From: Candidatus Ventrousia excrementavium
GTDB taxonomy: Bacteria; Bacillota; Clostridia; Oscillospirales; Butyricicoccaceae
Assembly: GCA_018714845.1 (NCBI GenBank)
Contig: DVMR01000065.1
Span: forward strand, 1 to 24,000
Direction of reading: 5' to 3'
Length of the DNA stretch: 24,000 nucleotides
Positions 4,560 to 24,000 of the stretch are shown one piece after another. The position numbers and the translations under genes are program-made. A model generated the notes under the pieces. It saw only the letters and a list, made by a program, of their open reading frames with translations. It had not been told where the DNA came from and searched no databases. The first letter of the stretch is position 1; each line of letters starts with the position of its first letter.

Positions 4560-5366
4560 TTACTTCCGGGGACTGAAGCCGTAAAAGTGGATGACATTCA
4601 TGTCTGTGTCCATGTCAAGCCCGTGCGAGCCGCAGCCGCCGTCAATGAGATGGCAGCCGTGGTCGGGCATGAAGCCGTACAGGGTGTTGTGGTGCGGCCA
4701 TTTATCGCGCACCGCGTCGACCAGCCCGCTGTATACGGCGATATTGGCGCGCAGGCGGTCCATGGCCTCGGGTGATTCCGGGCCCGTGCGGTGCATCTGT
4801 GCATCATAATCGGCATTGTACACGACGATGACGTCATGGCGGTCGGCCTCGATGAGTTCGTGCGCTTTGGCGTTGACCTCGTCCACAGTGTCGTAAATAA
4901 AATAATCCATGGAGCGGTTCAAAAAGATGACCGAGATGCTGTCTCCGGCCGTTGAGACAATGGCCAGTTTTTTGCCCGCGGCAATGAGCGCGTCGAACAG
5001 GGTCGGCACAGTGAGAACCGGCTTTTCATAGGCCTGGATGCCATGTACATCAGGTGTTACGCCGGTATACATCGAGGCAAAGCAAACGGGCGTGACCGAC
5101 GGCATGACCGACAGCATGGGAAGAGAAACCGCAGAGCGGCACACGGCGTCGGTAAACAGGTCAGTGTACTTCTGGTACAGCCAGAAAGCGATGGCGTCAG
5201 GGTTGTACAAGAGGGCACGGTCGACCGTGCCGCCGAGCAGACATTGCCGCAGCTGTGTCAGCGCGCCAATCGGGGGCTGCATATCAGCGCGGGGAGCGAC
5301 GCCCAGCGCTTCGAGCACTGACGCGGCAACGCCGGTGATGCAAATGGAATTGTACTGTCCGGCCAA
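4560..5366 (-). CDS. Alkaline-phosphatase superfamily protein (nucleotide pyrophosphatase/phosphodiesterase-like), short form
   Basis: MPSVTPVCFASMYTGVTPDVHGI matches the NPP/AP nucleophile-Thr motif. C-terminal MPDHGCH...GSHG matches the metal-ligand D-H ... H motifs. TTG start at 5366 with AAGGA upstream. Substrate unknown. Confidence 0.65.
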   Translation of the reverse strand: MAGQYNSICITGVAASVLEALGVAPRADMQPPIGALTQLRQCLLGGTVDRALLYNPDAIAFWLYQKYTDLFTDAVCRSAVSLPMLSVMPSVTPVCFASMYTGVTPDVHGIQAYEKPVLTVPTLFDALIAAGKKLAIVSTAGDSISVIFLNRSMDYFIYDTVDEVNAKAHELIEADRHDVIVVYNADYDAQMHRTGPESPEAMDRLRANIAVYSGLVDAVRDKWPHHNTLYGFMPDHGCHLIDGGCGSHGLDMDTDMNVIHFYGFSPRK

Positions 5367-5426: not shown

Positions 5427-5528
5427 GCCTGCGTTAAATTGGATATAGAAAGCATATATAAAGCAGATGACAATTTTGTATAATAGGTGTATACTGTAAA
5501 AAAAGAGCATTATAGGAAGAGTTCCGAT

Positions 5529-7319
5529 ATGTCATATATAGTAGATGCGGCGGCGTGCGGGCTGTATTTTGACAGTATGCCGGTTGCTTTCACCATCATA
5601 GAGATTGTAGTGGATGAAAAGCAGCAGCCGATTGATTTTATTTTTCGGTATGCCAATGCAGCGTTGGCGAGGCTCGAAGGCAAAATGCTGCACGAGCTGA
5701 TCGATAAACGCTTTTATCGGGACGTCTTTCCGCAGGACAACGATAAAAAGTGTCTGCCGCACTACTTTCGGTCTGCCTTTCACAGGCAGGTGTGTCAGTT
5801 GAATGAATACAGCCGTGAAGCAAGTAAGCATCTGCGGATCATCTCATATCCGTGGCGCCAGCCGGGTTTCTGTGCGTGTATTTTGATTGACGAAACCGAG
5901 CAGAAGCGGCGATGGGATGAGTTGGGACACAGGGCGGCATTTGACTCACTGACCCGTACACTCAACCAGAACAGCTATCATGAATATTGTGAGGATTATC
6001 GCCCCGGAGCAAGCGCAGGCGTTGTCTTTATAGATGTCAACGGCCTGAAAGAATACAACGACAGTTTTGGCCATCCGGCGGGAGATCGATTGATTCAAAC
6101 AGTAACAGGCCGCATAGGGGCCGTTTTGATGAATCGCCCGCATCTGGTTTTCCGTGTAGGCGGGGATGAATTTGCCATTATTATGGAGGGTTGCACTGAG
6201 GAGCAGACATGTATGACGGCTCTGGAGCTGCGGCGGGCATTTGTCAATGACGGTAATCCCGATCTTCCGCCCACACTGGCTGCAGTTGGGTACAGCTGGG
6301 GCGAGAATGTGCAGAATATCGACGAGCTGCTCAAACGGGCGGATGCTGCAATGTATGCTAATAAGCAGGACCATTACAAGCGAAAGAATGAGGTGCAGGC
6401 GAGCGACTGGCAACGTGCACTGCCCCGCATCCGCAACATGATTGACCATAAAATGATTGAAAACGAGAACCACAGCGCGCATCAGATGTGGAAAGAAAGC
6501 TATCGGATTGGCGTGGACCGCATTGATGCACAGCATATGGAGCTGTTCCGCATGACGGACGAGCTTTTGATGGCAGTCACTGTCAATGCGGGCGCAGAGG
6601 TTTACAGAAAAATTCTTGGATTTTTAAAGGAATATGTGGTTTATCACTTCCGGGATGAGGAAGCGTATCAGCAATCTATTGGTTATGCTGGGTTTGAAGC
6701 ACATCAGCGCGAGCATCAGCAATTTACACAGACAGTGCTGGCGTATGAAAAAAAGCTGATTGCCAGTCACTTTGCCCTGAGTGACGTTAAGGATCTGGCC
6801 GGAACAGTTGTTGCCTGGCTGGTATATCATGTCACTGACGCGGACCAGCGAATTGTGTCTGGACAGACCGAGCTGCGGCCGCAGCAGAAGAACTGGCAGG
6901 ATATTTTTGTTGAAAGTGCAGCTGCTGTGGTAAAAAAAGTGTCAGGTTTGGACAACGGCCGGGTGTGTATTCATGAAGTGTCCGGGCGTCCTGTGCAGGG
7001 AGATGTGCTGCTGAAAGTGAGCATCAGCGGCGATGTAAGCGGGATGGTTTATTTCGGTGTGTCAAAGGCGCTGGCATTGAATGTGCTCAGTCAGCTGACC
7101 ATGCGCAGACTGAACGATGTGGAGGAGATGGTGTGCTCGGCCATCTGTGAGTTTACGGAAATTGCCTGCAGCCGTGCGATCAGGCTGCTTGAGATGCAGG
7201 GGGTGCACTGCAGAACCGGGACTCCCGTCAGACTGACGAGTCCTGCGCCGGAAGGTCTGCACGTCATGGTAGTCGAGATTGAGGCCGGGACACTTGATGT
7301 TGCAGTTGAGGAAGCCTGA
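5529..7319 (+). CDS. Multidomain diguanylate cyclase: PAS-like / GGDEF / bacteriohemerythrin / CheX-like
   Basis: ATG 5529 behind AGGAAGAG; the track start at 5487 has no SD. PAS-like N-terminus (MPVAFTIIEIVVDEKQQPIDFIFRYANAALARLEG...). GGDEF domain at about 5938..6380 with an intact motif RVGGDEFAI (GGDEF codons 6159..6173). Hemerythrin domain at about 6488..6855 with all ligand motifs (IDAQH, HFRDEE, HQREH, YHVTDAD). C-terminal roughly 140 aa (6891..7316) shows the CheC/CheX pattern ISGDVSGMVYFGVS ... SAICEFTEIACSRAIRLLEMQGVHCRTGTP. Confidence 0.85.
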   Translation: MSYIVDAAACGLYFDSMPVAFTIIEIVVDEKQQPIDFIFRYANAALARLEGKMLHELIDKRFYRDVFPQDNDKKCLPHYFRSAFHRQVCQLNEYSREASKHLRIISYPWRQPGFCACILIDETEQKRRWDELGHRAAFDSLTRTLNQNSYHEYCEDYRPGASAGVVFIDVNGLKEYNDSFGHPAGDRLIQTVTGRIGAVLMNRPHLVFRVGGDEFAIIMEGCTEEQTCMTALELRRAFVNDGNPDLPPTLAAVGYSWGENVQNIDELLKRADAAMYANKQDHYKRKNEVQASDWQRALPRIRNMIDHKMIENENHSAHQMWKESYRIGVDRIDAQHMELFRMTDELLMAVTVNAGAEVYRKILGFLKEYVVYHFRDEEAYQQSIGYAGFEAHQREHQQFTQTVLAYEKKLIASHFALSDVKDLAGTVVAWLVYHVTDADQRIVSGQTELRPQQKNWQDIFVESAAAVVKKVSGLDNGRVCIHEVSGRPVQGDVLLKVSISGDVSGMVYFGVSKALALNVLSQLTMRRLNDVEEMVCSAICEFTEIACSRAIRLLEMQGVHCRTGTPVRLTSPAPEGLHVMVVEIEAGTLDVAVEEA

Positions 7320-7328
7320 ACAGAAAAA

Positions 7329-7352
7329 AGAGCGCGGCTGTTGCCGCGCTCT
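7329..7352. terminator. Hairpin terminator between convergent genes (stronger on the minus strand)
   Basis: AGAGCGCGGC-TGTT-GCCGCGCTCT. Read on the minus strand it is followed by TTTTTTCTG (A-run 7323..7328 on plus). On the plus strand only TCGTCTAT follows. Confidence 0.7.
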
Positions 7353-7373
7353 TCGTCTATCAGGGGAATCTGA

Positions 7374-7571
7374 TTACTTCAGGTTGTTTTCGTACGACTC
7401 GATCATCTTCTTGACCATCTGGCCGCCGATGCTGCCGGCCTGGCGGGAAGTCAGCTCGCCGTTATAGCCGTTGGTCAGGTTGACGCCGACTTCGCGGGCA
7501 GCTTCCATTTTGAACTTATCCATAGCGGCACGGGCTTCAGGAACATTGATCTTGCTGCGATTGCTAGACAT
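7374..7571 (-). CDS. Alpha/beta-type small acid-soluble spore protein (SASP)
   Basis: MSSNRSKINVPEARAAMDKFKMEAAREVGVNLTNGYNGELTSRQAGSIGGQMVKKMIESYENNLK. Shows the conserved SASP blocks KxExAxExGV and TSRxxGSxGGxM, including the GPR-type cleavage context MEAARE. ATG 7571 lies behind AAAGGAG; the track start at 7595 is upstream of the SD. Confidence 0.9.
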   Translation of the reverse strand: MSSNRSKINVPEARAAMDKFKMEAAREVGVNLTNGYNGELTSRQAGSIGGQMVKKMIESYENNLK

Positions 7572-7699
7572 TATGATGTTCTCCTTTAATTTCAAATGTT
7601 AGCCATCGTCGGGCAGGAGCGGGCTTTCCGGCGGATTTGGTCGGGCTGTCCGCTCCTGTCAGCTGATGGTGTTCTTAGTATGGCGGGCCAGCGGTTTTT

Positions 7700-8182
7700 T
7701 TATGATAAGGAAATGTTGCCAGCGTTGGATTCATTTTTTTGCTGTTCGGCGCCGAGCAGCAGACAGACCGCCGCTACAGCCATGCGGGTCTCCATATCGC
7801 CGCAAAGGTGACCAACCGGAACTTCCATGGGCTCGACCGATCGCCCGTCCAGGGTCATCAGGCCGCGCTGCAGGGAAACGACACGGCCCTCGCCCAGCGT
7901 AGCTGAGGGCGTCAGCGTATCGCGGACGCTGAAACCGTAGGTGACCACCATATCGCAGCGGCAGTGCTCAAGCGCCGGGCCGGCATTTTCACCGCAGACA
8001 GTCAGCGCGCGCGCACTGAGTGACATGGTCTGCGGCGGGCAGGGGTTCTGTGCCCACACGACGACATCATAGGGCGGCGGCGTTTCGCACGGCGCGGTGA
8101 CCAGCGCTTTTGGGCCGACCGCAGCCTGCAGAGCTGCACGCACCGGGCCACCGGGCTGTTCGACGACGGCAATGACGCGCAA
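7700..8182 (-). CDS. Hypothetical Cys-rich protein (160 aa)
   Basis: TTG start 8182 behind GAGGTGA. Seven Cys residues. The C-terminal two thirds (ALTVCGENAG..CDMVVTYGFSVRDTL...VVSLQRGLMTLDGRSVEPMEVPVGHLCGDMETRMAVAAVCLLLG) resemble, by eye only, the second half of a Mur-ligase central domain. There is no P-loop. Confidence 0.55.
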   Translation of the reverse strand: MRVIAVVEQPGGPVRAALQAAVGPKALVTAPCETPPPYDVVVWAQNPCPPQTMSLSARALTVCGENAGPALEHCRCDMVVTYGFSVRDTLTPSATLGEGRVVSLQRGLMTLDGRSVEPMEVPVGHLCGDMETRMAVAAVCLLLGAEQQKNESNAGNISLS

Positions 8183-8292: not shown

Positions 8293-8532
8293 TCAGTTTT
8301 CCGGCTGCTCAAAAAGCAGCGTATAGCCATTTGGTGCATCCTCGTATACTGCTTCGAGGTCGTCTGTCGCCATGGACGGTTCAAACGGACCCTCGAAGCG
8401 CACACAGACGCCGCATGAAGCGCTGAGAGCGCGCGGGACCGGCATCATGCCGGCGTTTCGGCCAAGACGCTCTATTTTTTTCTGAAAGCTCATGGCCCCA
8501 AAGTGGGTGTGAAAGGTGGCAATCAGGTGCAT
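8293..8532 (-). CDS. DUF3343-family small protein (putative Se/S carrier-like)
   Basis: 79 aa. HLIATFHTHFGAMSFQKKIERLG...MMPVPRALSASCGVCVRF matches the P-x-P-R-x-(3)-S-CG pattern I recall for DUF3343. AAGGGGGA SD. Last gene of the yedE operon. Confidence 0.7.
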   Translation of the reverse strand: MHLIATFHTHFGAMSFQKKIERLGRNAGMMPVPRALSASCGVCVRFEGPFEPSMATDDLEAVYEDAPNGYTLLFEQPEN

Positions 8533-8577
8533 GGCAGAATCCCCCTTTATACATGGCGGGGAATCCCGGCCCCGCTC

Positions 8578-8778
8578 TTACTCGATGGTCAGCTCGAAAT
8601 CCGGGCCAACCTCTTTGCATTTTACCACAAGTTTCTGGTTTTGTGCAAATCGGGTGATGTTCTGCACAGCCGTGCGATTATCGACCAGCACGGTCAGGGG
8701 ACGGCCTTTTGCCAGCGCCTGTTTGGTCATCAGCACCGGCTCAGGACAGGAATAGCCGCGGGCATCAATCTTATTCAT
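8578..8778 (-). CDS. yedF: TusA/SirA-like sulfur/selenium carrier protein (YedF-like)
   Basis: 66 aa. IDARGYSCPEPVLMTKQAL carries the TusA-family CPxP active-site Cys motif. AGGAGG SD. Lies 16 nt after yedE. Confidence 0.8.
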   Translation of the reverse strand: MNKIDARGYSCPEPVLMTKQALAKGRPLTVLVDNRTAVQNITRFAQNQKLVVKCKEVGPDFELTIE

Positions 8779-8794
8779 TGTGCGCTCCTCCTTT

Positions 8795-9865
8795 TTATTC
8801 CGCTTTCTGGCGGTTGAGCAGGCCGATTACCGTGCAGACGACCAGGCCGAGAATGACGGCGATTTTGCCATTCAGGGTCGGGCCGGCCGTCGACGAGGCC
8901 AGCGAGAAGTTGTGGCAGAAGGCGGCGCCGACGACCATGCCGAGCACGGCGACAGCGCTGTCGCTCTGGCCGCTGCCGGCCAGAATAAGCTGGCGCAGCG
9001 GGCAGCCGCCCAGCATGACCGAGCCAAGACCGGTCAACGCCATGCCGATGAAGTTCCACACACCGTCAGTGTGTGCGATGGGCTGTGTTGTTTCAGCGTC
9101 GATGACAAAGCCGAGGTGGAACTGCCCGACAATCAGGTTGCCGACCAGTGCGGCGACAATGATGGCGACAAAGCCGAGAAGCAGATGGAAGTCCTTGAAC
9201 AGAACGGCGTCACGGATGCCGCCGACCATGCACAGGCGGGTCTTCTGCGCCAGCGCGCCGACAACCAGTCCGGCGGCCAGGGCCAGCCACATGGGGGCGC
9301 GCATCGAACCCGGGCCGCTTTCGCTGAACAGCAGCAGCGAGGGCACGGCGACGAGCAGAATCAGAACGACAATGGACATGACAGGCATCAAAGCGCCCTC
9401 AACCTTGGACTGCGGCTGCGACTTTTTCAGGCTGAAGCCCTTTTTCAGGAAAAGGACGCCGGCCAGAATGCCGGCGGCAAAGCCGACCAGGCCGACAATG
9501 GCGTTGAGGTCGCCGCCCGCGATGCGCAGCACCATGCGCAGAGGACAGCCCAGGAACATCAGAGCGCCGACCATGACAAAAAAACCGAGCACAAAGCGGG
9601 TGACCGGCGACGAGCCGCCGCGCACCTTGAACTCTTTGCCGGCGATGGCCATGATGCAGGCGCCAAGCACCAGGCCGATAATCTCGGGACGGGCGTACTG
9701 CACGGTGTCGGCGCGATGCAGACCGAGTGCGCCCGCCGTGTCGCGCAAAAAGCAGGCGATGCAAAAGCCCATGTTGCCCGGGTTGCCGCACTGCACCAGC
9801 ACGACAGAGATGGCGCCGATAATCAGTCCCGTCAGCACCATCAGCAGGGTTTGCTTGTTTTTCAT
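8795..9865 (-). CDS. yedE: YedE/YeeE-family membrane protein (putative selenium/sulfur-compound transporter)
   Basis: 356 aa polytopic membrane protein. N-terminal signature VQCGNPGNMGFCIACFLRDTAGALGLH and a second GGCPLRQ / LGCPLRM repeat are typical of the YedE family. GAGGAG SD. Confidence 0.85.
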   Translation of the reverse strand: MKNKQTLLMVLTGLIIGAISVVLVQCGNPGNMGFCIACFLRDTAGALGLHRADTVQYARPEIIGLVLGACIMAIAGKEFKVRGGSSPVTRFVLGFFVMVGALMFLGCPLRMVLRIAGGDLNAIVGLVGFAAGILAGVLFLKKGFSLKKSQPQSKVEGALMPVMSIVVLILLVAVPSLLLFSESGPGSMRAPMWLALAAGLVVGALAQKTRLCMVGGIRDAVLFKDFHLLLGFVAIIVAALVGNLIVGQFHLGFVIDAETTQPIAHTDGVWNFIGMALTGLGSVMLGGCPLRQLILAGSGQSDSAVAVLGMVVGAAFCHNFSLASSTAGPTLNGKIAVILGLVVCTVIGLLNRQKAE

Positions 9866-9947
9866 ATGTACTCTCCTCTTTTCTGCGGCCGGACTGGCCG
9901 CTGGGTTCCCCCCTCGTGGGAGTTAAGGCAGGGTATTTGCTATAAGA

Positions 9948-9977
9948 ATTGTATCGAAAAATGGCAGGATTGTACAA
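9948..9977 (-). promoter_or_regulatory. Candidate sigma-A promoter of the yedE operon
   Basis: Minus strand: TTGTAC (9972..9977), 18-nt spacer, TACAAT (9948..9953). Predicts a leader of about 75 nt. Confidence 0.4.
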
Positions 9978-10095
9978 TATTTTTTATCGATAAAATCTTT
10001 TTTATTTATAGTTTTTCGTGATAAGTATGGAAATGGGTGACAAAATCCGATATACTGAACACAATGGGAGTAATGATTTAAAGAGGGAAGTTTAC

Positions 10096-11247
10096 ATGTC
10101 CATTTATTTTGACAACGGAAGTACATCTTTTCCCAAAGCGCCTGGCGTGGCCGAGGCAGTGGGAGGTTTGATTGCGTCGGGGGCCTTTAACATCAACCGC
10201 GGCGGCTACGCCGGGGCGTACGAGGTCGCGGGCGCGGTGTTCGAAACGCGGGAGCTTTTGTGCCGCATGTTCGGATTTTTAGGCGAGTGCAAAAATGCAG
10301 TGTTCACTCCAAGCGTTACCTATGCGCTCAACATGATTCTCAAGGGGTGGCTGCGCCCGGGGGACCATGTCGTCACAACGTCCATGGAGCACAACGCCGT
10401 CATGAGGCCGCTCGTTCAGCTGGCGGGGACCGGCGTACACTTTGACGCTGCGCAGGCCGATGAGCGCGGTGTGCTCGACCCCGAAAAAATAGAAGCGCTC
10501 ATCAGGCCGGAGACCCGCGCGGTTGTCATGACGGCGGCGTCCAATGTCTGCGGAACGCTCATGCCGCTGCGCGAGGTGGGAGAAATCTGCGCGCGGCGCG
10601 GCGTGCGGTTCATTGTGGACAGCGCGCAGGCGGCGGGACTGTTCCCTCTGTCCATGACAGAGCTGCACATTGACGCGCTGACCTTTACAGGCCATAAGAG
10701 TCTGCTCGGTCCGCAGGGCATTGGCGGCATGATTCTGCGCACAGACCTCGCAGAGGAAATCGAGCCGCTGGTCAGCGGCGGGACGGGCAGCATGTCGGAC
10801 AGTGAAGAGGTCCCGCCTTTTCTGCCTGACCGGTTCGAGCCCGGTACGCTCAACCTGCCCGGCATCATCGGCCTGCACACAGCGCTTTTGTTTTTGCAGG
10901 AGACCGGTATTGACACCCTGCGCGGGCATGACCTGCGTCTGACCGCGCGCTTTTTGGATGGCGTGCGGGAACTGCCGCACACAAGAGTCGTCGGCCTGCC
11001 CGGCGTTGAGGGCCGCGCGCCCATTGTATCGCTCGACTTCGGCACACTGGACAACGCCGAGGTGGCCTACACGCTGGACAGCCGGTATGGCGTCATGACG
11101 CGCTGCGGCCTGCACTGTGCGCCGCGGGCCCACAAAAGCCTCGGCACTTTCCCGCAGGGCACGGTCCGCTTTGCCTTTGGATATGGGAACACAGAAAGCG
11201 AAGTCGATCAGTGCCTGGATGCGCTCAAAGAGATTACCAGACAGTGA
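10096..11247 (+). CDS. Class-V aminotransferase, cysteine desulfurase / selenocysteine lyase-like
   Basis: ATG 10096 behind AGAGGGAAG; the track start 10018 lies in AT-rich non-coding DNA. MSIYFDNGSTSFPKAPGV..., PLP-Lys motif FTGHKSLLGPQGIGG, active-site Cys loop MTRCGLHCAPRAH. Confidence 0.85.
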   Translation: MSIYFDNGSTSFPKAPGVAEAVGGLIASGAFNINRGGYAGAYEVAGAVFETRELLCRMFGFLGECKNAVFTPSVTYALNMILKGWLRPGDHVVTTSMEHNAVMRPLVQLAGTGVHFDAAQADERGVLDPEKIEALIRPETRAVVMTAASNVCGTLMPLREVGEICARRGVRFIVDSAQAAGLFPLSMTELHIDALTFTGHKSLLGPQGIGGMILRTDLAEEIEPLVSGGTGSMSDSEEVPPFLPDRFEPGTLNLPGIIGLHTALLFLQETGIDTLRGHDLRLTARFLDGVRELPHTRVVGLPGVEGRAPIVSLDFGTLDNAEVAYTLDSRYGVMTRCGLHCAPRAHKSLGTFPQGTVRFAFGYGNTESEVDQCLDALKEITRQ

Positions 11248-11250
11248 AAA

Positions 11251-11273
11251 GCGCGGAAGCACTGCTTCCGCGC
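11251..11273. terminator. Shared hairpin terminator between the desulfurase gene and selD
   Basis: GCGCGGAAG-CACTG-CTTCCGCGC, 9-bp stem. GAAAA on the left; T-run (GATTTTTT) 9 nt to the right. Confidence 0.6.
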
Positions 11274-11286
11274 CATTCGTGATTTT

Positions 11287-12324
11287 TTATAAAACCGTGA
11301 CAGCTCTGTCGCCCCGGTCGCGTACCTCGCCGACCAGCGCGGCGGCGACGCCTTCGGCCTCAAGCCGCTGCATCAGCTCACCGGAACGCGCTTCAGGCAC
11401 CGAGATGAGCAGTCCGCCCGACGTCTGCGGGTCGTAAAGCACGTCAGAGAGCGCCTGCGGGACCGACGGGTCGACCAGAACCTCGTCTGCGACAAAGTCC
11501 ATGTTGCGGTAGGTACCCGCCGGAATGATGCCTTCGCTTGCCAGCTCGAGCACACCGGGCAGTACGGGCACGCTTTTGGAGTCGATGACGACTGAAAGGC
11601 CGCTGCCGCGCGCCAGCTCGCAAAGGTGGCCCAGAAAGCCGAAGCCGGTGACGTCGGTACAGGCGCTGGGACGGACAGGCATCATGGCGCGCTGGGCGTT
11701 TTTGTTGAGCGTTGCCATGACGGCGGTCATATCGCGCACCTGCTGCTCGTCGAGCAGCTCGGCCATGGCGGCGGTGGTCAGGATTCCAGTGCCCAGCGGC
11801 TTGGTCAGTACCAGCTTGTCGCCCGGCCGGGCGCGGTCGTTGCGCAGAATGTCATCCGGGTGGGCGTAGCCTGTGACGCACAGGCCGTATTTGGGCTCGC
11901 TGTCTTCGATGGAATGCCCGCCGGCAATGACGGCGCCGGCCTCGCGCACCTTGTCGGCTCCGCCCTCCAGAATGGCGCGCACGGTCTGCAGGTCCAGGCA
12001 GGACGGAAAGCAGATCAGGTTCATGGCGAGATTGGGCATGCCGCCCATGGCGTAGACGTCGCTTAACGAATTGGCGGCCGCAATCTGCCCGAATGCGTAC
12101 GGGTCGTCGACAATGGGCGGGAAAAAGTCGACGGTGTGGATGGCCGCCAGGTCATCGCGCACGAGATAAACAGCCGCATCGTCGCTCGAATCAAAGCCGA
12201 CGACGAGCCGCTCGTCCTGCAAACGGGGCAGGCCTCTTAAAATTTCACTCAGGACCCCCGGTCCTATCTTTGCGCCTCAGCCGCCCGCTTTGGCCATTTG
12301 CGTCAGGCGCTGTTTTTCAGCCAT
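11287..12324 (-). CDS. selD: Selenide, water dikinase (selenophosphate synthetase) containing selenocysteine (in-frame TGA)
   Basis: Track ORF 11287..12222 starts just after an in-frame TGA. Extending in frame gives ATG 12324 (GAAGGGGG SD) and MAEKQRLTQMAKAGG-U-GAKIGPGVLSEILRGLPRLQDERLVVGFDSSDDAAV.... The TGA at 12277..12279 sits exactly where SelD has its catalytic Cys/Sec (E. coli GCGCK, Sec forms GUGCK), and the Lys is kept. No other stops lie in the 34-codon extension. Total 345 codons, a normal SelD length. Confidence 0.9.
12251..12265 (-). promoter_or_regulatory. Candidate bacterial SECIS hairpin for the selD UGA
   Basis: mRNA: UGA-GGCGCAAAGAU-AGGACC-GGG-GGUCCU. The 6-bp stem (extendable by U-G) starts 11 nt after the UGA, with a G-rich apical loop about 17 nt downstream. 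This is within the spacing described for bacterial SECIS elements. Confidence 0.55.
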
Positions 12325-16151: not shown

Positions 16152-16247
16152 AGCGTTTCCTCCTTTGCGCCTTTTGATTCAGGCTTATTATTTCCGCGGA
16201 CATGGGGCTTTATGCTGCATAAATCGTGAAAGATTGTCAAAACCTGC

Positions 16248-16277
16248 TTGACAGAGGCGTTTCATAGGCGATATAGT
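16248..16277 (+). promoter_or_regulatory. Candidate sigma-A promoter of the fumarase/mesaconase genes
   Basis: Consensus TTGACA (16248..16253), 18-nt spacer, TATAGT (16272..16277). Confidence 0.45.
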
Positions 16278-16310
16278 TTGCATAGAGACTGATTTTGAGG
16301 AGGCATGACG

Positions 16311-17150
16311 ATGAGAGAAATTTCGGCGCAGCAGATTGCCGACACGGTGCGGCGCCTGTGCATTGAAGCCAATCGCAGCCTGCCCGGCGACGTCCGCCGG
16401 CGCATTCAGGACTGCCGCGCGCAGGAGGACTGGGAGCCGGCGCAGGGAATTTTGGACAAAATCATTGAAAATTACCGCATTGCGGACGACGAGCAGGTGC
16501 CCATCTGCCAGGACACCGGCATGGCCTGTGTTTTTTTGGAAATCGGACAGGATGTTCATATTATGGGTGACCTGCACGCTGCCGTTGACGACGGTGTCCG
16601 CCGCGGCTATGACGAGGGATATCTGCGCAAGTCGGTCGTCCGCGACCCTCTGGACCGCGTCAACACCGGCGACAATACGCCGGCCATGCTGTATATTGAC
16701 CTTGTGCCGGGCGATCGCGTCACCGTCACCGTCGCGCCCAAGGGCTTTGGCAGCGAAAACATGAGCCGCATCAAAATGCTGCGGCCGTCTGACGGGATTG
16801 ACGGCGTCCGGCAGTTCGTGCTCGACACCGTCGAAGAGGCAGGCCCCAACCCCTGTCCGCCCATCGTCGTTGGCGTCGGTATCGGCGGCACCTTTGACAA
16901 AGCGGCCTTTCTGGCTAAAAAGGCGCTGATGCGTCCTCTCGACAAGCGCAATGAAAAGCCGTTTTATGCAGAGCTTGAGCAGGAGCTTTTGGAAAAAATC
17001 AACGCTCTCGGCGTCGGGCCGCAGGGCTTCGGCGGACGTACGACGGCACTTTGCGTCAACATCGAGACGCTGCCGACCCATATCGCCGGCCTGCCCGTGG
17101 CCGTCAACATCAACTGCCATGTGACACGCCATCAGACGGAGGTGCTGTAA
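16311..17150 (+). CDS. Class-I (Fe-S) fumarate hydratase / hydro-lyase alpha subunit; probable mesaconase in this context
   Basis: ...IIENYRIADDEQVPICQDTGMACVFLEIGQDVHI...GFGSENMSR...CPPIVVGVGIGGT is the Fe-S hydro-lyase tartrate/fumarate alpha type. ATG 16311 is 7 nt after GAGGAGG; ATG 16305 is too close to the SD. Confidence 0.88.
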   Translation: MREISAQQIADTVRRLCIEANRSLPGDVRRRIQDCRAQEDWEPAQGILDKIIENYRIADDEQVPICQDTGMACVFLEIGQDVHIMGDLHAAVDDGVRRGYDEGYLRKSVVRDPLDRVNTGDNTPAMLYIDLVPGDRVTVTVAPKGFGSENMSRIKMLRPSDGIDGVRQFVLDTVEEAGPNPCPPIVVGVGIGGTFDKAAFLAKKALMRPLDKRNEKPFYAELEQELLEKINALGVGPQGFGGRTTALCVNIETLPTHIAGLPVAVNINCHVTRHQTEVL

Positions 17151-17711
17151 ATGGAAAAGCGCATCGAGACCCCCATCACGCGCGAGGCGGCGCGTGCACT
17201 CAAAAGCGGCGACGCAGTGCTGCTTTCGGGCGTCATCTACACGGCGCGCGACGCGGCGCACAAGCGTTTGTGCGAGCTGGCCGAACAGGGAAAGCCGCTG
17301 CCTATTGACATTGAAAACGCGACCATTTATTTTGTCGGGCCCACGCCGGCAAAGCCGGGACAGGCCATCGGCTCGGCCGGCCCGACGACCAGTTACCGCA
17401 TGGACGCCTATTCGCCGACCTTGATTGCCCTGGGCCAGACCGGCATGATTGGCAAGGGAAAGCGCGGGCCCGAGGTTGTCGAGGCCATGAAAAAGTACGG
17501 CGCCGTCTACTTCGGCGCCATCGGCGGCGCGGGCGCGCTTTTGTCCCGCTGCATTGTAAAAAGCGAGGTCGTGGCTTATGAAGACCTGGGGGCTGAGGCC
17601 ATCCGGCGCCTGACTGTGCGCGACCTGCCTGTAACGGTCATCATCGACAGCGAGGGCAATAATCTGTATGAAACCGGACGGCAGCAGTACCTGGCAGAGC
17701 ATAAAAAATAG
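17151..17711 (+). CDS. Class-I (Fe-S) fumarate hydratase / hydro-lyase beta subunit
   Basis: LKSGDAVLLSGVIYTARDAAHKRL...IYFVGPTPAKPGQAIGSAGPTTSYRMD...GMIGKGKR is the beta-subunit pattern. Its ATG directly abuts the alpha-subunit TAA (17148..17150). Confidence 0.88.
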   Translation: MEKRIETPITREAARALKSGDAVLLSGVIYTARDAAHKRLCELAEQGKPLPIDIENATIYFVGPTPAKPGQAIGSAGPTTSYRMDAYSPTLIALGQTGMIGKGKRGPEVVEAMKKYGAVYFGAIGGAGALLSRCIVKSEVVAYEDLGAEAIRRLTVRDLPVTVIIDSEGNNLYETGRQQYLAEHKK

Positions 17712-17714
17712 GGA

Positions 17715-17743
17715 TTGACAAATAATGATTCCATTGTCATAAT
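17715..17743 (+). promoter_or_regulatory. Candidate sigma-A promoter of the GntR gene
   Basis: Consensus TTGACA (17715..17720), 17-nt spacer, CATAAT (17738..17743). Confidence 0.45.
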
Positions 17744-17793
17744 TGTACCAGTACATTTACGCCAGGCAGAACACGGCGGAGAGGTGAAGGTCA

Positions 17794-18768
17794 ATGGAGA
17801 TCAGAATTAAGTCAGGGACTGACGTCCCTATTTATCAGCAGATTGTCGACGCCGTGCAGGAGCAAATCAGTTCAGGCGTGCTGGCCGAGGGACAGAAGCT
17901 GCCTACGGTGCGGCAGCTGGCCGAAGAGATGGGGCTGGCCAAAGGGACAATCAAACGCGCCTATGACGAGCTGGAACGCTGCGGCGCCATTCGTATGACC
18001 CAGGGCAAGGGGACCTTTGTGCTGGAGCTGCGCCGCCGCACGGACAGCCACAAGGAGCAGGCCATGCAGGCCATTGACCGCATGCTGGACGAGCTCGAGG
18101 CGCTGGATTTTTCGCCCCGCGAAATCGAGATTTTCTTTGACCTCAAGCTTCGGGCGCGCATGGATCGCGGCGCCGGGCTGCGTGTTGCCGTCACAGACTG
18201 CAATGTCGAGGCGCTGGCGCTGATTGCAGACCAGATTGCCGCCATCGGGGGCATTGAGCTCTTCCGGTTTACGCTGGATGAGGTTATGAGCGCGCCGTAC
18301 AAGCTGAGCGACAGCATGGAGCTGATCTTTACAACCGAGCGCCACGTCGAACAGCTTGAGCGCATTGTGTCGCAGCCGCAGAAAATCGTCAAGCTGGCGC
18401 TTGCCCCGACGCAGGCGACCGTCGTTTCGCTGGCGAGGATGCGCGACGCGCGGCGGATCGGGATTATCAGCGCCAGCGAGCAGTATGGCGACGCCATGCG
18501 CGAAGGGGCGTCCGAGGTCATCGGCACGGATCACCGGTTTGAGTCGCGCTTTTTCGGCGACGGCGATCCCGGCGGCTTTGTCAGCCGCCAGGACGCCGTG
18601 CTGGTGCCTGCCGGCTATATGAAATACTGTTCGGCCGAAGAGGCCGAATGGCTGCACCGCTTCAGCCGCAGCAAACCGCTGCTGGCCTATGAGCTGCAAA
18701 TCGATGCAGGGTCTTTTATGTACCTGCGCGACCGCATCGAACAGCTGCAGCGCCGGCGCAGGAAATAG
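17794..18768 (+). CDS. GntR-family transcriptional regulator with a large unclassified C-terminal domain
   Basis: PIYQQIVDAVQEQISSGVLAEGQKLPTVRQLAEEMGLAKGTIKRAYDELERCGAIRMTQGKGTFV is a GntR wHTH. The remaining roughly 250 aa I cannot assign to the FCD, UTRA or MocR effector types by eye. GAGAGGTGAAGG SD. Confidence 0.8.
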   Translation: MEIRIKSGTDVPIYQQIVDAVQEQISSGVLAEGQKLPTVRQLAEEMGLAKGTIKRAYDELERCGAIRMTQGKGTFVLELRRRTDSHKEQAMQAIDRMLDELEALDFSPREIEIFFDLKLRARMDRGAGLRVAVTDCNVEALALIADQIAAIGGIELFRFTLDEVMSAPYKLSDSMELIFTTERHVEQLERIVSQPQKIVKLALAPTQATVVSLARMRDARRIGIISASEQYGDAMREGASEVIGTDHRFESRFFGDGDPGGFVSRQDAVLVPAGYMKYCSAEEAEWLHRFSRSKPLLAYELQIDAGSFMYLRDRIEQLQRRRRK

Positions 18769-18776
18769 AGGGAAAA

Positions 18777-18799
18777 GTCCGGGGTTCCCGGGCTTTTTT
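18777..18799 (+). terminator. Rho-independent terminator after the GntR gene
   Basis: GTCCGGG-GTT-CCCGGGC, 7-bp stem including one G-U pair, followed by TTTTTT. Confidence 0.75.
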
Positions 18800-18820
18800 C
18801 ACATTTTGAGTAAAATTGCC

Positions 18821-18849
18821 TTGACATATGACATAGCACAATATATGAT
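18821..18849 (+). promoter_or_regulatory. Candidate sigma-A promoter of the glmS-glmL-glmE-mal operon
   Basis: Consensus TTGACA (18821..18826), exact 17-nt spacer, TATGAT (18844..18849). Leaves a leader of about 70 nt before ATG 18924. Confidence 0.55.
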
Positions 18850-18923
18850 ATAGGCATAGTTCAAGCAATGACAAAGTACACGAATAAGGGCTTTGATCAA
18901 GCCCGTAAGAATGGAGTGCGCTT

Positions 18924-19343
18924 ATGAGCAAAAAAAAGAAACTGGTCATCGGCGTTATCGGCGCCGATGTCCATGCCGTTGGCATTCAGATTCTTTACCA
19001 TGCCTTTCAGGACGCGGGGTTCGACGTGACCAACCTGGGAGTCATGGTTTCACAGGAGGAGTATATTGACGCGGCTATTGAGACCAACGCCGACGCCATT
19101 GTTGTTTCGTCGCTGTACGGGCAGGGCGAGCTTGACTGCCGCGGTATGCGCGAAAAGTGCGACGAGGCCGGTCTGAAGGGCATTTTGCTGTACGTCGGCG
19201 GGAACATCGTCATTGGAAAGCAGAACTTTGCCGATGTGGAAAAGCGTTTCAAGGCCATGGGCTTTGACCGCGCCTTCCCGCCCGGGACACCGCCTGAGAC
19301 GACGATCAAGGCTTTGAAAGAGGATCTCAAGGTCGAGGACTGA
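18924..19343 (+). CDS. glmS: Glutamate mutase (methylaspartate mutase) small subunit S, B12-binding
   Basis: [20 protein letters not shown] (DxHxxG), [16 protein letters not shown]. 139 aa. Close to Clostridium MutS/GlmS as I recall them. Confidence 0.92.
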
Positions 19344-19359
19344 AAAGGGGTGACGGAAG

Positions 19360-20760
19360 GTGAAGCCCATCCTGCTCATTGACTTTGGCAGCACCTACAC
19401 CAAAGTGACGGCCGTGGACGGCGACGCCGGCGAACTGCTCGGGACGGCGGCCGCTTACACCACGGTGCAGACCGACATTAATGACGGCCTGGACAGCGCG
19501 CTGAAGCGGCTTTTTGAAAAAACCGGGCCGTTGGAGTTCGCCGAGCGTTACGCCTGTTCGTCGGCAGCCGGCGGGCTGCGCATGATGGCGTGCGGGCTGG
19601 TGCCCGAGCTGACGGCGTCGGCCGCGCGGCAGGCCAGCCTGGGCGCGGGAGCCAAAGTCGTCAAGGTGTATTCATACCAGCTCAACGAAGACGACGCCGA
19701 AGAAATCGCCGCCCAGAAGCCGGATATTTTCCTGCTGGCGGGCGGGACTGACGGCGGCAACAGCGAGGTCATTCTGCACAACGCCAAAGTGCTGGCCGGC
19801 GTAGAGGCCGATTTTCCGGTCATTATCGCGGGCAACCGCTCGGCGGCCCGGCAGTGCCAGCGGATCCTGGAAGGCCGCCAGACCTTTGTGTGCGAAAACG
19901 TCATGCCCCGGTTCGGCGTGCTCAATATCGAACCCACACAGAAAAAGATCCGCGACGTGTTCCTGGAGCGCATTATCAAGGCCAAGGGCCTGTCGCGCGC
20001 CAGCGAACTGATTTCGGGCATTATGATGCCCACCCCGTCCGCCATGATGACGGCCATGCAGCTGCTGGCCGAGGGCTGCGAAGGGGAAAAGGGCATCGGC
20101 GACCTGGTTGCCGTCGACGTCGGCGGCGCGACGACCGACGTCTATTCCATTGCCGACGGTATGCCGCGCGGAATGGAGACCGTATACAAGGGCCTGCCTG
20201 AACCGTATGTCAAGCGCACGGTCGAAGGGGACATCGGGATGCGTTACAGCATCCACGGCATTGTCGAAGCGGCCGGGATGGATCGCGTGTGCGAGCTGTC
20301 AGGGCTGGAAGAGGGCCGGGCGGCAGAACTCATCGACCACCTGGCGGCCTATACCGAGACGCTGCCCGACACCGACGAGCTGGAGCGCCTTGACTTTGCG
20401 CTGGCGTCGCTCGCTGTCGAGACGGCGGTCACCCGTCATGCGGGCACCATGGAACAGGCGTACACCATGATGGGCCTGACTTATGTGCAGACGGGAAAGG
20501 ATTTGCGCGATGTGCGGCAGATCGTCGTGACGGGCGGATCGCTGATTCACACGCGCAGGACGGAAGAGATTGCGGCGCACGCGCTGCAGGATCCGCGCAA
20601 GCCCATGAACCTTTTGCCGCAAAAGGCAAAGATCCGCATCGACCGGCGTTATATTCTGGCGGCGATGGGGCTTTTGTCCCGGACCGAGCCGCAGATGGCG
20701 CTCAGAATCATGAAAAAGGAGCTTACATGCGATGGAAGTACAGAACAAACGCATCCCTGA
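19360..20760 (+). CDS. glmL: Glutamate mutase accessory protein GlmL/MutL (reactivase/chaperone-like, ASKHA fold)
   Basis: GTG start. [20 protein letters not shown]..., [24 protein letters not shown]. Occupies the canonical position between the S and E subunit genes. Confidence 0.88.
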
Positions 20761-22180
20761 CGACGAGTTTTACAAGCTGAGAGAAGAGGTCCTGGGCCAG
20801 TGGCCGACCGGCAAGGACGTCAATTTGCAGGAAGCCTTTGACTACCATAAGAAAATGCCCGAGAGCAAGGACTTTTCGCGCAAGCTCAAAACGGCCAAGG
20901 AAAAGGGCCAGACCCTGATTCAGCCGCGCGCCGGCGTCGCCCTGATCAAAGAGCACATCGAGCTTTTGACTTATTTGCAGGACAAGGGCGAGGCGGATCT
21001 GCTGCCGACGACCATCGACAGCTACACCCGCCAGAACCGTTATGAAGAAGCCGAGAACGGCATTTTGGAATCTATCAAATCGCAGCGCTCGATGCTCAAC
21101 GGCTTTCCGGCCGTCAATCACGGCGTTTCGGGCTGCCGCCAGGTCATCGAAAGCCTCGACATCCCGGTGCAGGTGCGCCACGGCACCCCGGACGCCCGCC
21201 TGCTGACCGAAATCGCCTATGCCGGCGGCTTTACCAGCTATGAGGGCGGCGGCATTTCGTACAACCTGCCCTATGCCAAAAACGTGCCCATGGAGCGCAC
21301 CATCCGCGACTGGCAGTATGTCGACCGCCTGACCGGCGTCTATGAAGAGGCCGGATGCGCCATCAACCGCGAGCCCTACGGCCCGCTGACCGGCACGCTG
21401 GTCCCGCCGTGCATTTCGCACGCCGTCGCCATTATCGAGGCGCTTCTGGCCGCAGAGCAGGGCGTTAAGAATATCACGGTCGGCTACGGCCAGTGCGGCA
21501 ACCTGGTGCAGGACGTCGCCGCCATCCGCAGCCTGGAAGAGCTGACCGAAGAGTACCTGGCCCGCTACGGTTATGACGACGTCACCGTTACCACGGTGCT
21601 GCACCAGTGGATGGGCGGGTTCCCGCAGGACGAGGCCAAGGCCTTTGGCGTCATTTCGTGGGGGTCGGCGGCCGCCGCTTTGAGCCACGCCACCAAAGTC
21701 ATCGTCAAGAGCCCGCACGAAGCGGTCGGCATCCCGACCATGGAGGCCAACGCGCAGGGCCTGCGCTGCACCAAGCAGGTCATTTCCATGCTGGGCGACC
21801 AGACCCTGACCGCCGCCGGGCTGGAACAGGAAAAGAAGATCATTGCCGCCGAGACCCGCTGCATCGTCGACAAGTGCTTTGAGCTGGGCGAGGGCGACAT
21901 TGCCGTCGGCACCATCCGCGCCGTGCAGGCCGGCGTCGTCGACATCCCGTTCGCCCCCAGCCGTTTCAACGCGGGCAAGATGCTGCCCGCCCGCGACGAC
22001 GAGGGCGCGATCCGCATCCTTAACGTCGGCAACCTGCCGTTTACGCAGGATCTCATCGACTTCAACCGCGAACAGATTGAAAAGCGCGCCGCGCACGAAA
22101 AGCGCAAGGCGTCGTTCCAGATGGTCATCGACGACGTCTACGCCATTTCCAAGGGCCGCCTGGTCGGCCGCCCGTACTAA
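20732..22180 (+). CDS. glmE: Glutamate mutase (methylaspartate mutase) large subunit E
   Basis: [48 protein letters not shown]...[46 protein letters not shown] is collinear with Clostridium GlmE. AAAGGAG SD. Overlaps the glmL 3' end by 29 nt. Confidence 0.92.
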
Positions 22181-22221
22181 CCCGTACTAAAAAGATTCCA
22201 TTACAGAGAGGAAGAGCAAAA

Positions 22222-23466
22222 ATGAAAATTGTCAACCTCGTTTGTTCCAAGGGGCGCACCGGTTTTTACTTTGACGACCAGCGCGCCATCAAGGCCGGCG
22301 CCAAGGCCGACGGATCGGCCTATATCGGCCAGCCGGTAACCCCCGGCTTTACCGCTGTCCGCCAGGCCGGCGAGTCCATTTCGGTTATGCTGGTGCTGGA
22401 AAACGGCCAGGTCGCCTACGGCGACTGTGCGGCCGTGCAGTACAGCGGCGCGGGCGGCCGCGACCCGCTGTTTCTGGCTGAGGACTTTATCCCCGTTATC
22501 GAAAAGCATATCAAGCCCGCCCTGGTCGGCAAAGAGGCCGACAGCTTTAAAAAGCTTTCGGAAATGGTCGAGAGCATCACGGTCGACGGCAAGCGCCTGC
22601 ACACCGCCATCCGTTACGGCGTGACGCAGGCCATTCTGGATGCTGTGGCCCGCGCCACCTGCCGCCAGATGTGCGAGGTCGTGGCCGACGAGTACGGCTG
22701 CACGGTGTCCGACCACATGATCCCCGTGTTCACCCAGTCGGGCGACAGCCGTTACGACAATGCCGACAAGATGATTATGAAGGGCGCCGCCGTGCTGCCC
22801 CATGCCCTCATTAACAACGTCGACACCAAGCTGGGCCGCAAGGGCGAAAAGCTGGCCGAGTACGTTGGCTGGCTGCGCGACCGCATTTTGAAGCTGCGCC
22901 AGAGCGAGGACTACAGTCCCGTTATGCACATCGACGTCTACGGCACTATCGGCGCGGCTTTTGGCAACGACAACTACACGGGCATGGCCGATTACCTGCA
23001 GCAGCTTGAAGAGATCGCCAAGCCCTTCCACCTGCGCATCGAGGGTCCCATGGACGTCGAGGAGCGCGAGGGACAGATGCTGGCGCTCAAGGCCCTGACC
23101 GCCGAGCTCGACCGCCGCGGCAGCACCGTCGAAATTGTGGCGGACGAGTGGTGCAACACCCTTGAGGACATCAAGTATTTTGCTGACAACAAGGCCGGCC
23201 ATATGGTGCAGATTAAGACCCCGGACCTGGGCGGCATCAACAACACTGTTGAAGCGGTGCTCTACTGCAAGGAAAAGGGCATTGGCGCCTATCAGGGCGG
23301 CACCTGCAACGAGACCGACCGTTCGGCGCAGATCTGTGTGCAGTGTGCTATGGCGACCCAGCCCGACCAGATTCTCGCAAAGCCCGGCATGGGCGTTGAC
23401 GAGGGCTTTATGATTGTCTACAATGAAATGCAGCGCATCCTGGCGCTGCGCGCCGCCGGGAAATAA
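22222..23466 (+). CDS. mal: 3-methylaspartate ammonia-lyase
   Basis: MKIVNLVCSKGRTGFYFDDQRAIKAGAKADG... is an enolase-superfamily protein, 414 aa, collinear with Clostridium methylaspartase. GAGAGGAAGAG SD. Confidence 0.92.
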   Translation: MKIVNLVCSKGRTGFYFDDQRAIKAGAKADGSAYIGQPVTPGFTAVRQAGESISVMLVLENGQVAYGDCAAVQYSGAGGRDPLFLAEDFIPVIEKHIKPALVGKEADSFKKLSEMVESITVDGKRLHTAIRYGVTQAILDAVARATCRQMCEVVADEYGCTVSDHMIPVFTQSGDSRYDNADKMIMKGAAVLPHALINNVDTKLGRKGEKLAEYVGWLRDRILKLRQSEDYSPVMHIDVYGTIGAAFGNDNYTGMADYLQQLEEIAKPFHLRIEGPMDVEEREGQMLALKALTAELDRRGSTVEIVADEWCNTLEDIKYFADNKAGHMVQIKTPDLGGINNTVEAVLYCKEKGIGAYQGGTCNETDRSAQICVQCAMATQPDQILAKPGMGVDEGFMIVYNEMQRILALRAAGK

Positions 23467-23475
23467 ACGGATAAA

Positions 23476-23513
23476 AAGGGGGACCGCGTCCGAACTGGGA
23501 GCGCGTCCCCCTT
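23476..23513 (+). terminator. Possible terminator hairpin after mal
   Basis: AAGGGGGAC(C)GCG ... CGCGTCCCCCTT, about a 12-bp stem with one bulge. Only TT follows, so termination efficiency is uncertain. Confidence 0.4.
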
Positions 23514-23530
23514 GGCTGCACATGCGCATG

Positions 23531-23559
23531 AAAAAGAAAACCGCCCGCAGTGCGGGCGG
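23531..23559 (-). terminator. Rho-independent terminator of the right-edge minus-strand gene
   Basis: Minus strand: CCGCCCGC-ACT-GCGGGCGG followed by TTTTCTTTTT. Starts 6 nt after the TGA at 23565..23567. Confidence 0.75.
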
Positions 23560-23564
23560 CAGCA

Positions 23565-24000
23565 TCAAAACATCTTGATGCGGTTAAGATCTTCCTCGGG
23601 CTCGGCCTCGTCGCCGACCAGGCCGACGAGCAGATAGCGGTTGGTTTCCTGGTCGAAAAAGAGCTTGTGCACCAGACGGAAGTTTTTGACCATGCCGGTG
23701 CTGGGTACATGGGTGCGCGGGCCGGTGCAGGGGTGCAGGACATCGCCGATGCGGACGTGATTTTCGTCTACATAGGAGACGGGCAGGTCGAGCTCGATGT
23801 CGCGCCGGACCTTTTGTTCGATGTCGTCAAAGTCGAGGTCAGGCGCCTCATCTTGGAAGGTCAGGACAAAGCCGTTGTTGACGTCGTCGTGCTGAAAGCG
23901 CCCGAGCTCCCAGTGAGGCAGATAGCGTTCACACAGGTCTTCGGCCGTGTGGGCCATCTGGCGGATGCGCAGCGACCGCGACACAATATCGTAAATGTCC
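23565..24000 (-). CDS. Hypothetical protein, C-terminal part (reading frame stays open to the right window edge); remote resemblance to AlaX / tRNA-synthetase SAD editing-domain proteins
   Basis: The track ORF starts at GTG 23984, but the frame continues without a stop to 24000 (..DIYDIVSRSL..). MAHTAEDL and RIGDVLHPCTGPRTHVPSTGMVKNFRLV resemble the HxxxH and CxxxH-TG blocks of the Thr/Ala-tRNA synthetase second additional domain, but with altered spacing and residues. Confidence 0.5.
   Translation of the reverse strand, partial: DIYDIVSRSLRIRQMAHTAEDLCERYLPHWELGRFQHDDVNNGFVLTFQDEAPDLDFDDIEQKVRRDIELDLPVSYVDENHVRIGDVLHPCTGPRTHVPSTGMVKNFRLVHKLFFDQETNRYLLVGLVGDEAEPEEDLNRIKMF

Follow-up and report, generated by a model that had tools for sequence, protein, structure and literature searches.

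We describe here a gene of Candidatus Ventrousia excrementavium, found in a 24,000-nucleotide stretch (contig DVMR01000065.1 of assembly GCA_018714845.1, positions 1 to 24,000; hereafter the window), whose 596-amino acid (aa) product is a predicted four-domain diguanylate cyclase in which a PAS-GGDEF pair is joined end to end to a hemerythrin-CheX pair that has lost its phosphatase signature. With a probability of roughly 0.5, we consider this protein to be a soluble, probably dimeric cyclase under O2 or redox control whose former phosphatase domain would serve a structural or allosteric role. An earlier annotation made from the DNA letters alone (the sequence-only reading) had described the same four-domain open reading frame (ORF), and all of its sequence-level statements held against the ORF translation, Pfam, motifs and structure models; its functional proposal, a direct connection to the chemotaxis phosphorelay, fared differently and is weighed below. 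The features of the gene are as follows.

5529..7319, plus strand: complete coding sequence of 596 aa, PAS-GGDEF-hemerythrin-CheX, with the PAS match below cut-off and the CheX motif degenerate (stop-free translation, Pfam, homologues)
5529..5903, plus strand: PAS-fold N-terminal domain, residues 1-125 (AlphaFold2, Foldseek, PAS_4 in homologues)
5937..6374, plus strand: GGDEF diguanylate cyclase domain, residues 137-282 (Pfam, alignment with TM1788)
6399..6455, plus strand: inter-domain linker SDWQRALPRIRNMIDHKM, residues 291-309, GGDEF to hemerythrin (alignment)
6486..6860, plus strand: bacteriohemerythrin four-helix bundle, residues 320-444 (NCBIfam, ligands, model)
6894..7316, plus strand: CheX-fold domain, residues 456-596, phosphatase signature lost (PF13690, model, PDB matches)
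7137..7160, plus strand: degenerate active-site motif S537-A-I-C-E541-F-T-E544 (phmmer alignment)

Domains were called with Pfam and NCBIfam models against their curated cut-offs, together with AlphaFold2 models and Foldseek comparisons with the PDB. CheX (PF13690) was recovered over residues 497-567 at 30.9 bits (gathering score, 27). The full-length model, which had a mean predicted local distance difference test score (pLDDT) of 74 and a predicted template modeling score (pTM) of 0.42, placed an alpha/beta domain at residues 456-595, and the last 150 residues modeled alone reached a pLDDT of 88 and a pTM of 0.84. The top PDB matches of this isolated C-terminal model were all CheX structures (3h4y, 1squ, 3hm4, 6vpw, and 3hzh_B; TM scores of 0.71-0.79, E about 1e-10), with CheC, FliY, and FliM ranking after them. 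Both profile and structure thus bear out the CheX/CheC-type assignment of the C-terminal domain in the sequence-only reading.

The active site of this domain is degenerate, and it is so throughout the family. The phmmer alignment set SAICEFTE of the window protein opposite SAIGELGN of Thermotoga maritima CheX, with P566 (7224-7226) at equal spacing, leaving the catalytic motif [SD]-x3-E-x2-N-x(21-22)-P incomplete in the window protein, where the catalytic Asn is replaced by Glu544. This Asn is essential for CheX catalysis, the N94A variant of Vibrio cholerae CheX being inactive (PMC12799141), and loss of phosphatase activity is therefore predicted from the Asn-to-Glu substitution, in line with the earlier description of the domain as probably non-catalytic. 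Five full-length relatives were found among 5.8 billion proteins (P0001 at 98% identity, P0002-P0004 at 61%, and P0005 at 42%), and the octets of this fused clade read SAICEFTE, SSICEFSG, STICEFSG, SAMCEFAD, and SAVRQLIA. Position 544 is accordingly E, G, G, D, or A, so that no member retains the Asn and its replacement is inconsistent. Ser537 does not vary; Glu541 is present in four members and is Gln in P0005.

Divergence of the CheX domain extended beyond the catalytic residue. Among positions at least 90% conserved in stand-alone hemerythrin-CheX proteins (described below), the fused clade has lost 10 of 31 in CheX versus 2 of 50 in hemerythrin, and the lost CheX positions include N544, G548, N549, D562, and I563, on or beside the active-site helix. 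The ratio of CheX to hemerythrin identity was 0.53 in fused pairs compared with 0.78 in stand-alone pairs of matched hemerythrin divergence. By these comparisons, the CheX domain evolves faster than its hemerythrin partner in the fused clade. The Glu/Asn pair is also missing from 23 of 77 more diverse stand-alone representatives, which suggests that a non-catalytic CheX on hemerythrin is a recurrent condition and not peculiar to the GGDEF fusion.

The CheX domain is nevertheless not junk, as judged by its length, core, confident fold, and substitution pattern. Each of the five fused clusters retains it at full length, even at 42% overall identity, as does a relative that lacks GGDEF (L031), and the core and glycine positions of the domain are invariant. 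Between the window and its syntenic 61% homologue (L006), the nonsynonymous divergence (dN) of this domain was 0.48 and the synonymous divergence (dS) was saturated at about 2.9; saturation applied across the window-L006 comparison (dS of 1.8 to 2.9, undefined for two segments), such that only dN << dS is usable. A profile search with the CheX domain returned fragments of the same gene only and no distant CheX fusions.

The domain that precedes CheX has the hallmarks of a bacteriohemerythrin. Pfam Hemerythrin matched residues 328-442 (E 2.4e-10), and both TIGR02481 (100.4 bits versus 51.75) and the bacteriohemerythrin model NF033749 (94.5 bits versus 84) scored above cut-off. AlphaFold2 predicted four long helices at residues 330-444. 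Seven diiron ligands (H336, H373/E377, H392/H396, and H434/D439) are invariant in both the fused and the stand-alone families, and a complete predicted diiron ligand set is thus retained, as the sequence-only reading had stated.

The cyclase domain is equally well preserved. GGDEF (PF00990) matched with an E value of 1.9e-24 (86.7 bits versus a cut-off of 23.8) and TIGR00254 with 78.9 bits (versus 37.4), and the GGDEF motif itself, G211-F215, lies at 6159-6173. The full-length AlphaFold2 model likewise has a GGDEF fold in this region. D169, K174, N177, D186, R209, GGDEF, and K279 match T. maritima TM1788 (4urs) and are invariant in the fused family, so that the domain retains every catalytic residue and is predicted to be of the active type. 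The inhibitory RxxD I-site, five residues before GGDEF, is an optional element that defines a product-inhibited subclass; in the alignment, NRPH stands opposite RRSD of TM1788, and no member of the fused family has RxxD. Product inhibition through this site is therefore not predicted, and the earlier call of an intact GGDEF site without RxxD agrees with the TM1788 alignment.

Support for the PAS domain came from fold and homologues, and the profile match in the window protein itself fell short, with PAS_4 scoring 17.7 bits against a Pfam cut-off of 23.1. Residues 1-121 were modeled with PAS topology at a pLDDT of about 90, the PAS and GGDEF region aligned with PA0861 and DosP in Foldseek, and PAS_4 was above cut-off in the homologues P0258, P0359, and P0311. 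Cys10 (5556-5558) and Cys115-Ala-Cys117 (5871-5879) are invariant, the latter within the motif YPW..G[FC]CAC[IL]..DE. The YPW..G[FC]CAC motif is common to stand-alone PAS-GGDEF, PAS-GGDEF-EAL, and PAS-hemerythrin-CheX relatives, the first two of which also have the N-terminal Cys, and the invariant cysteines may form a metal, Fe-S, or thiol redox site. Between GGDEF and hemerythrin, the linker SDWQRALPRIRNMIDHKM, which contains RxxxR, is near-identical in four of five family members despite 61% overall identity and is deleted in P0005; its residues (291-309) had low pLDDT.

Each half of the protein also occurs without the other. In a one-genome-per-species scan, the window locus was recovered as L005 (metagenome-assembled genome [MAG] E09__bin3) and its syntenic homologue as L006 (MAG E05__bin99), and about 30 further loci matched residues ~318-593 only. 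These encode stand-alone proteins of ~280 aa that run from the start of hemerythrin to the end of CheX and are 45-51% identical to residues 318-593. Carriers belong to Agathobaculum, Flavonifractor, Intestinimonas, Butyricicoccus, and Acutalibacter, with more distant ones in Family XIII, Peptococcaceae, and Gracilibacteraceae. A profile search yielded 284 stand-alone hemerythrin-CheX clusters, mostly from Oscillospiraceae, with Pfam matches to Hemerythrin, CheX, and CheC, and these were named at most "bacteriohemerythrin" in their sources (related loci L007-L036 and L055-L066; proteins P0124-P0243). In 117 of the 120 close stand-alone clusters listed, [SD]-x3-E-x2-N-x(20-23)-P is kept, nearly always as SALCELTN. 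The N-terminal half was found alone as PAS-GGDEF proteins of ~290 aa (P0257, P0258, and P0265) and as PAS-GGDEF-EAL (P0311, P0330, and P0346).

End-to-end matches were rare by comparison: two 50%-identity clusters (P0004 and P0005) among 1.84 billion representatives, in a search whose profile included the PAS-GGDEF columns and the lower part of whose list was mostly generic GGDEF proteins. Because both halves exist separately and end-to-end matches are rare, we interpret the window protein as a rare fusion protein built from two older two-domain units, in place of the earlier view of a cyclase with two acquired accessory domains. Stand-alone proteins of the outgroup are of the canonical type, and a rough neighbor-joining tree places the fused clade close to the base of the Oscillospiraceae clade; both the fusion and the motif loss therefore appear derived. 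Homology to the stand-alone cassette is colinear across both domains; the window protein, a 596-aa fusion with a degenerate SALCELTN..CDIxPP signature, falls outside the ~280-aa two-domain type and is, on this sequence evidence, a derived offshoot and an atypical member of the cassette family. In MAG E05__bin99, the fused gene (L006) coexists with an intact stand-alone paralogue of the canonical type (L018:821-1681).

An artifactual origin of the four-domain ORF, by assembly chimerism or read-through, was rejected because independent assemblies yielded this architecture in five clusters at 42-98% identity, and is also contradicted by its recurrence in the syntenic position in L006. Regarding domain order, the sequence-only reading had placed the sensor downstream of the cyclase. 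This order was confirmed, but it is not unique, since GGDEF followed by a C-terminal hemerythrin also occurs in the uncharacterized PAS-GGDEF-hemerythrin proteins P0022 and P0037. A literature search found no GGDEF-CheX fusion and no characterized protein of this architecture, as had been supposed, and hemerythrin and CheX appeared together in the searched literature only in genome descriptions of magnetotactic bacteria, with the cassette itself undiscussed.

Several other arrangements of the cassette were observed. The relative without GGDEF, PAS-hemerythrin-CheX (L031:668-1981, the same as P0249), came from Neglectibacter and has the octet AAVWELAG, in which Asn is replaced by Gly. P0263 is a hemerythrin-hemerythrin-CheX protein, and P0252 is a tandem hemerythrin-CheX-hemerythrin-CheX in which the first CheX motif is degenerate and the second canonical.

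The mechanism we favor starts from the end-to-end fusion of a Cys-rich PAS-GGDEF cyclase with a paralogue of the Oscillospiraceae stand-alone hemerythrin-CheX protein. The diiron site would toggle between reduced and oxidized or O2-bound states, and its oxidation state would modulate synthesis of cyclic di-GMP (c-di-GMP), as extrapolated from the hemerythrin cyclase Bhr-DGC. The PAS domain, with its conserved cysteines, would provide a second input. The former phosphatase domain would no longer dephosphorylate phosphorylated CheY (CheY-P) and would have been retained, most plausibly, as a CheX-type dimerization platform with inherited coupling to hemerythrin, helping to position the two GGDEF domains relative to each other. 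The proposed dimerization or allosteric role is based on the homodimeric nature of CheX and on the inherited hemerythrin-CheX coupling.

Among characterized hemerythrin sensors, namely DcrH (a methyl-accepting chemotaxis protein [MCP]), Bhr-DGC (hemerythrin N-terminal to GGDEF), and Bhr-HD-GYP (PMC9388753), the second is closest in kind. In V. cholerae Bhr-DGC (Schaller et al. 2012, reviewed in PMC9388753), activity of the diferrous form exceeds that of the diferric form 10-fold. Like it, the window protein joins a full diiron ligand set to an active-type GGDEF in one soluble polypeptide, and redox or O2 control would be expected. Unlike the two-domain Bhr-DGC, it has the order PAS-GGDEF-hemerythrin-degenerate CheX and no RxxD I-site, and its hemerythrin descends from the hemerythrin-CheX cassette rather than from the Bhr-DGC lineage. 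In a survey of 56 hemerythrin architectures, MCPsignal-hemerythrin and hemerythrin-GGDEF were the most frequent (PMC4919030); this survey did not surface among the papers pairing hemerythrin with CheX. The stand-alone hemerythrin-CheX proteins share the linker and domain order of the window protein and are the source of its C-terminal half; the window protein differs in adding PAS-GGDEF and in the loss of the catalytic Asn and of about a third of the conserved CheX positions.

Several points weigh against this interpretation. The Bhr-DGC domain order is opposite, making the analogy for signal transmission a loose one, and inter-domain contacts are not defined by the full-length model at its pTM of 0.42. 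The proposed role of the degenerate CheX as a dimerization platform is extrapolated from CheX in general. Retention of Glu541 and the surrounding helix in four of five members would equally fit residual binding to a phospho-receiver, and disruption of the gene in a sister strain shows it to be dispensable.

The next best explanation, which we regard as possible but clearly less probable than a regulated cyclase with a structural CheX, is that the catalytically dead CheX still docks CheY-P or another phospho-receiver, thereby gating c-di-GMP synthesis or sequestering CheY-P. Non-catalytic members of the CheX fold, such as the FliM middle domain and the weakly active CheC, bind CheY-P, and this precedent favors docking, as do the intact CheX fold, the purifying selection on the domain, the invariant Ser537, and the presence of Glu541 in four of five members and in the L031 variant. 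Set against this, N544, G548, N549, D562, and I563, invariant in the stand-alone family, are all replaced, and inconsistently so, in a domain that diverges faster than hemerythrin.

The genomic context of the cassette also bears on docking, in both directions. Neither the 24-kb window nor its syntenic loci contain a che, MCP, or flagellar gene. A six-frame regular-expression scan of the loci for flagellin, CheA H-box, CheW, FliG, and MotA returned MCP cores only, a weak negative given its crude patterns. For the stand-alone cassettes, the three contexts first examined showed no conserved operon and no che genes, and four of six independent contexts consisted of unrelated housekeeping genes. 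In the other two of the six, an MCP gene is the immediate neighbor: a convergent CZB-HAMP-MCPsignal gene at L008/L065 and a divergent dCache-HAMP-MCPsignal gene at L063/L064. By a rough estimate, two of six is above chance, tying part of the canonical family, and with it the ancestry of the cassette, to chemotaxis. On the other hand, species of Agathobaculum, a genus that carries the canonical cassette, are described as non-motile (PMC8140505). The earlier proposal that a CheY-P-binding module wires the protein directly into the chemotaxis phosphorelay gained no positive evidence, with the Asn and further residues lost and che genes missing from the surroundings, and direct CheY-P wiring is possible but not supported.

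Known CheX and O2-sensing systems differ from the window protein in ways that sharpen this comparison. The CheX phosphatases of T. maritima (1squ/1xko), Borrelia burgdorferi (3hzh), and V. cholerae share its fold, with Ser and Glu in place and equal Pro spacing, but they are free 150-aa proteins, whereas the window domain is fused, has its Asn replaced, and lacks chemotaxis gene context. A documented connection between c-di-GMP and a CheX phosphatase is the PlzC-CheX pathway of V. cholerae (PMC12799141), in which the proteins are separate and a PilZ receptor modulates an active CheX; the window protein is instead a c-di-GMP synthase fused to a CheX that is predicted to be inactive. DcrH of Desulfovibrio vulgaris resembles it in having hemerythrin C-terminal to the signaling domain, with O2 or redox input and a connection to chemotaxis, but is a membrane chemoreceptor that acts via CheA and has neither GGDEF nor CheX.

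Less likely than either a structural role or CheY-P docking is pure decay, in which the CheX domain, possibly together with the rest of the gene, would be a decaying remnant carried along with hemerythrin after the fusion. The missing catalytic motif and faster divergence are in keeping with decay, as is a Pfam CheX score below cut-off in both P0005 and L031. So is the state of the gene in a sister strain with flanks 98.5% identical, where it is a pseudogene (L001:8676-10465, also L002-L004) seen in at least four samples: a TGT>TGA change at codon 154 and a 1-bp deletion at codon 407 split it into three ORFs, and this allele was the one that surfaced as gene fragments in the CheX-domain profile search. 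On another contig (L062), one base is missing from a G4 run at window position 6298, a separate lesion that may be a sequencing error, as the contig name suggests a long-read assembly. A stand-alone hemerythrin-CheX gene was likewise split into several ORFs by frameshifts (L051:9998-10800) in the cultured isolate Flavonifractor sp. An306. We consider decay unlikely in view of the full-length retention of the domain in five fused clusters to 42% identity and in L031, dN far below dS, invariant core and glycine positions, and a high-confidence fold.

Selenocysteine recoding of the codon-154 TGA in L001, an idea raised by the adjacent selenium-utilization cluster, was judged unlikely, the same allele being frameshifted. 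Comparison of the window with L006 (6523-8310) revealed flanking proteins that are 90-98% identical (dS of 0.4-0.9) around a cyclase at 61% with saturated dS. The cyclase alleles are thus much more ancient than the surrounding genes, a pattern suggestive of allelic replacement through recombination. Window positions 7187-7330, which cover the final ~140 bp of the gene and run into the intergenic region, differ from L001 at about 50 sites, compared with 1-3% over the rest of the locus, and may be a recombination tract. The cyclase gene is dispensable and the locus is mosaic.

That the domain is still a working phosphatase, with Glu544 replacing Asn, is highly improbable: the window protein retains Glu541 and the Pro spacing, but with E, G, G, D, or A at position 544 there is no conserved catalytic residue, and Asn-to-Ala abolishes V. 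cholerae CheX activity (PMC12799141).

The cyclase gene is monocistronic, with a divergent gene upstream and a convergent one downstream, and three further features were noted at its edges.

5467..5495, plus strand: promoter-like ATGACA-17-TATACT, 5' of the gene (consensus scan, 10/12 matches)
5514..5521, plus strand: ribosome-binding site AGGAAGAG, 7 nt before ATG 5529 (read from sequence)
7327..7354, no strand assigned: GC-rich hairpin with a 12-bp stem, between the convergent cyclase and small acid-soluble spore protein (SASP) genes (hairpin scan)

A longer alternative, starting at GTG 5487, is possible; ATG 5529 is preferred because all five homologues begin at the equivalent Met in the alignment and because it follows AGGAAGAG and the promoter-like site. 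Promoter-like sites in the region were no commoner than expected from shuffled sequence, and ATGACA-17-TATACT is thus only suggestive. The hairpin was picked up by the scan on the minus strand only and is likely a bidirectional terminator, its use on the plus strand being presumed. The upstream neighbor (4560-5366, minus strand) belongs to the Phosphodiest family and is missing from the otherwise syntenic L006 locus, and the convergent downstream neighbor (7374-7595) is an alpha/beta-type SASP gene.

Elsewhere in the window, positions 8293-12222 hold a selenium/sulfur trafficking cluster with Se_S_carrier, TusA, a YedE-type Sulf_transp protein, a class-V aminotransferase of the cysteine desulfurase or selenocysteine lyase type, and a SelD-like AIRS protein. 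A GntR regulator followed by glutamate mutase genes (B12-binding subunit, MutL, and MutE) occupies 17794-22180, and these mutase genes indicate glutamate fermentation by the methylaspartate pathway. ORFs at 7700-8182, 16188-17756, and 22201-23568 (all minus strand) had no Pfam match; the first, of 160 aa, is conserved in syntenic loci.

The four-domain protein is itself of modest novelty, as domain shuffling is common among c-di-GMP enzymes, and its main value is as a pointer to the hemerythrin-CheX cassette, which is present as hundreds of clusters in gut Clostridia and is uncharacterized. The canonical hemerythrin-CheX proteins are candidate O2- or redox-gated CheY-P phosphatases. A broader and more doubtful proposal is that they form an unrecognized class of O2- or redox-gated phosphatases, that the dead copy in the window acts as a receptor for a phospho-regulator, and that the cyclase would integrate O2 or redox state, a PAS signal, and a phosphorelay. 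If true, sensory input would enter chemotaxis, or another phosphorelay, at the phosphatase step and not at the receptor. The fused clade offers a natural comparison for what becomes of a CheX fold after the loss of catalysis, whether scaffold, dimerizer, or phosphoprotein receptor, and also for hemerythrin signaling to domains on both of its sides. Should the canonical members prove to be O2- or redox-controlled CheY-P phosphatases, they would represent a new route of oxygen avoidance for strict anaerobes, unlike that of the chemoreceptor DcrH.

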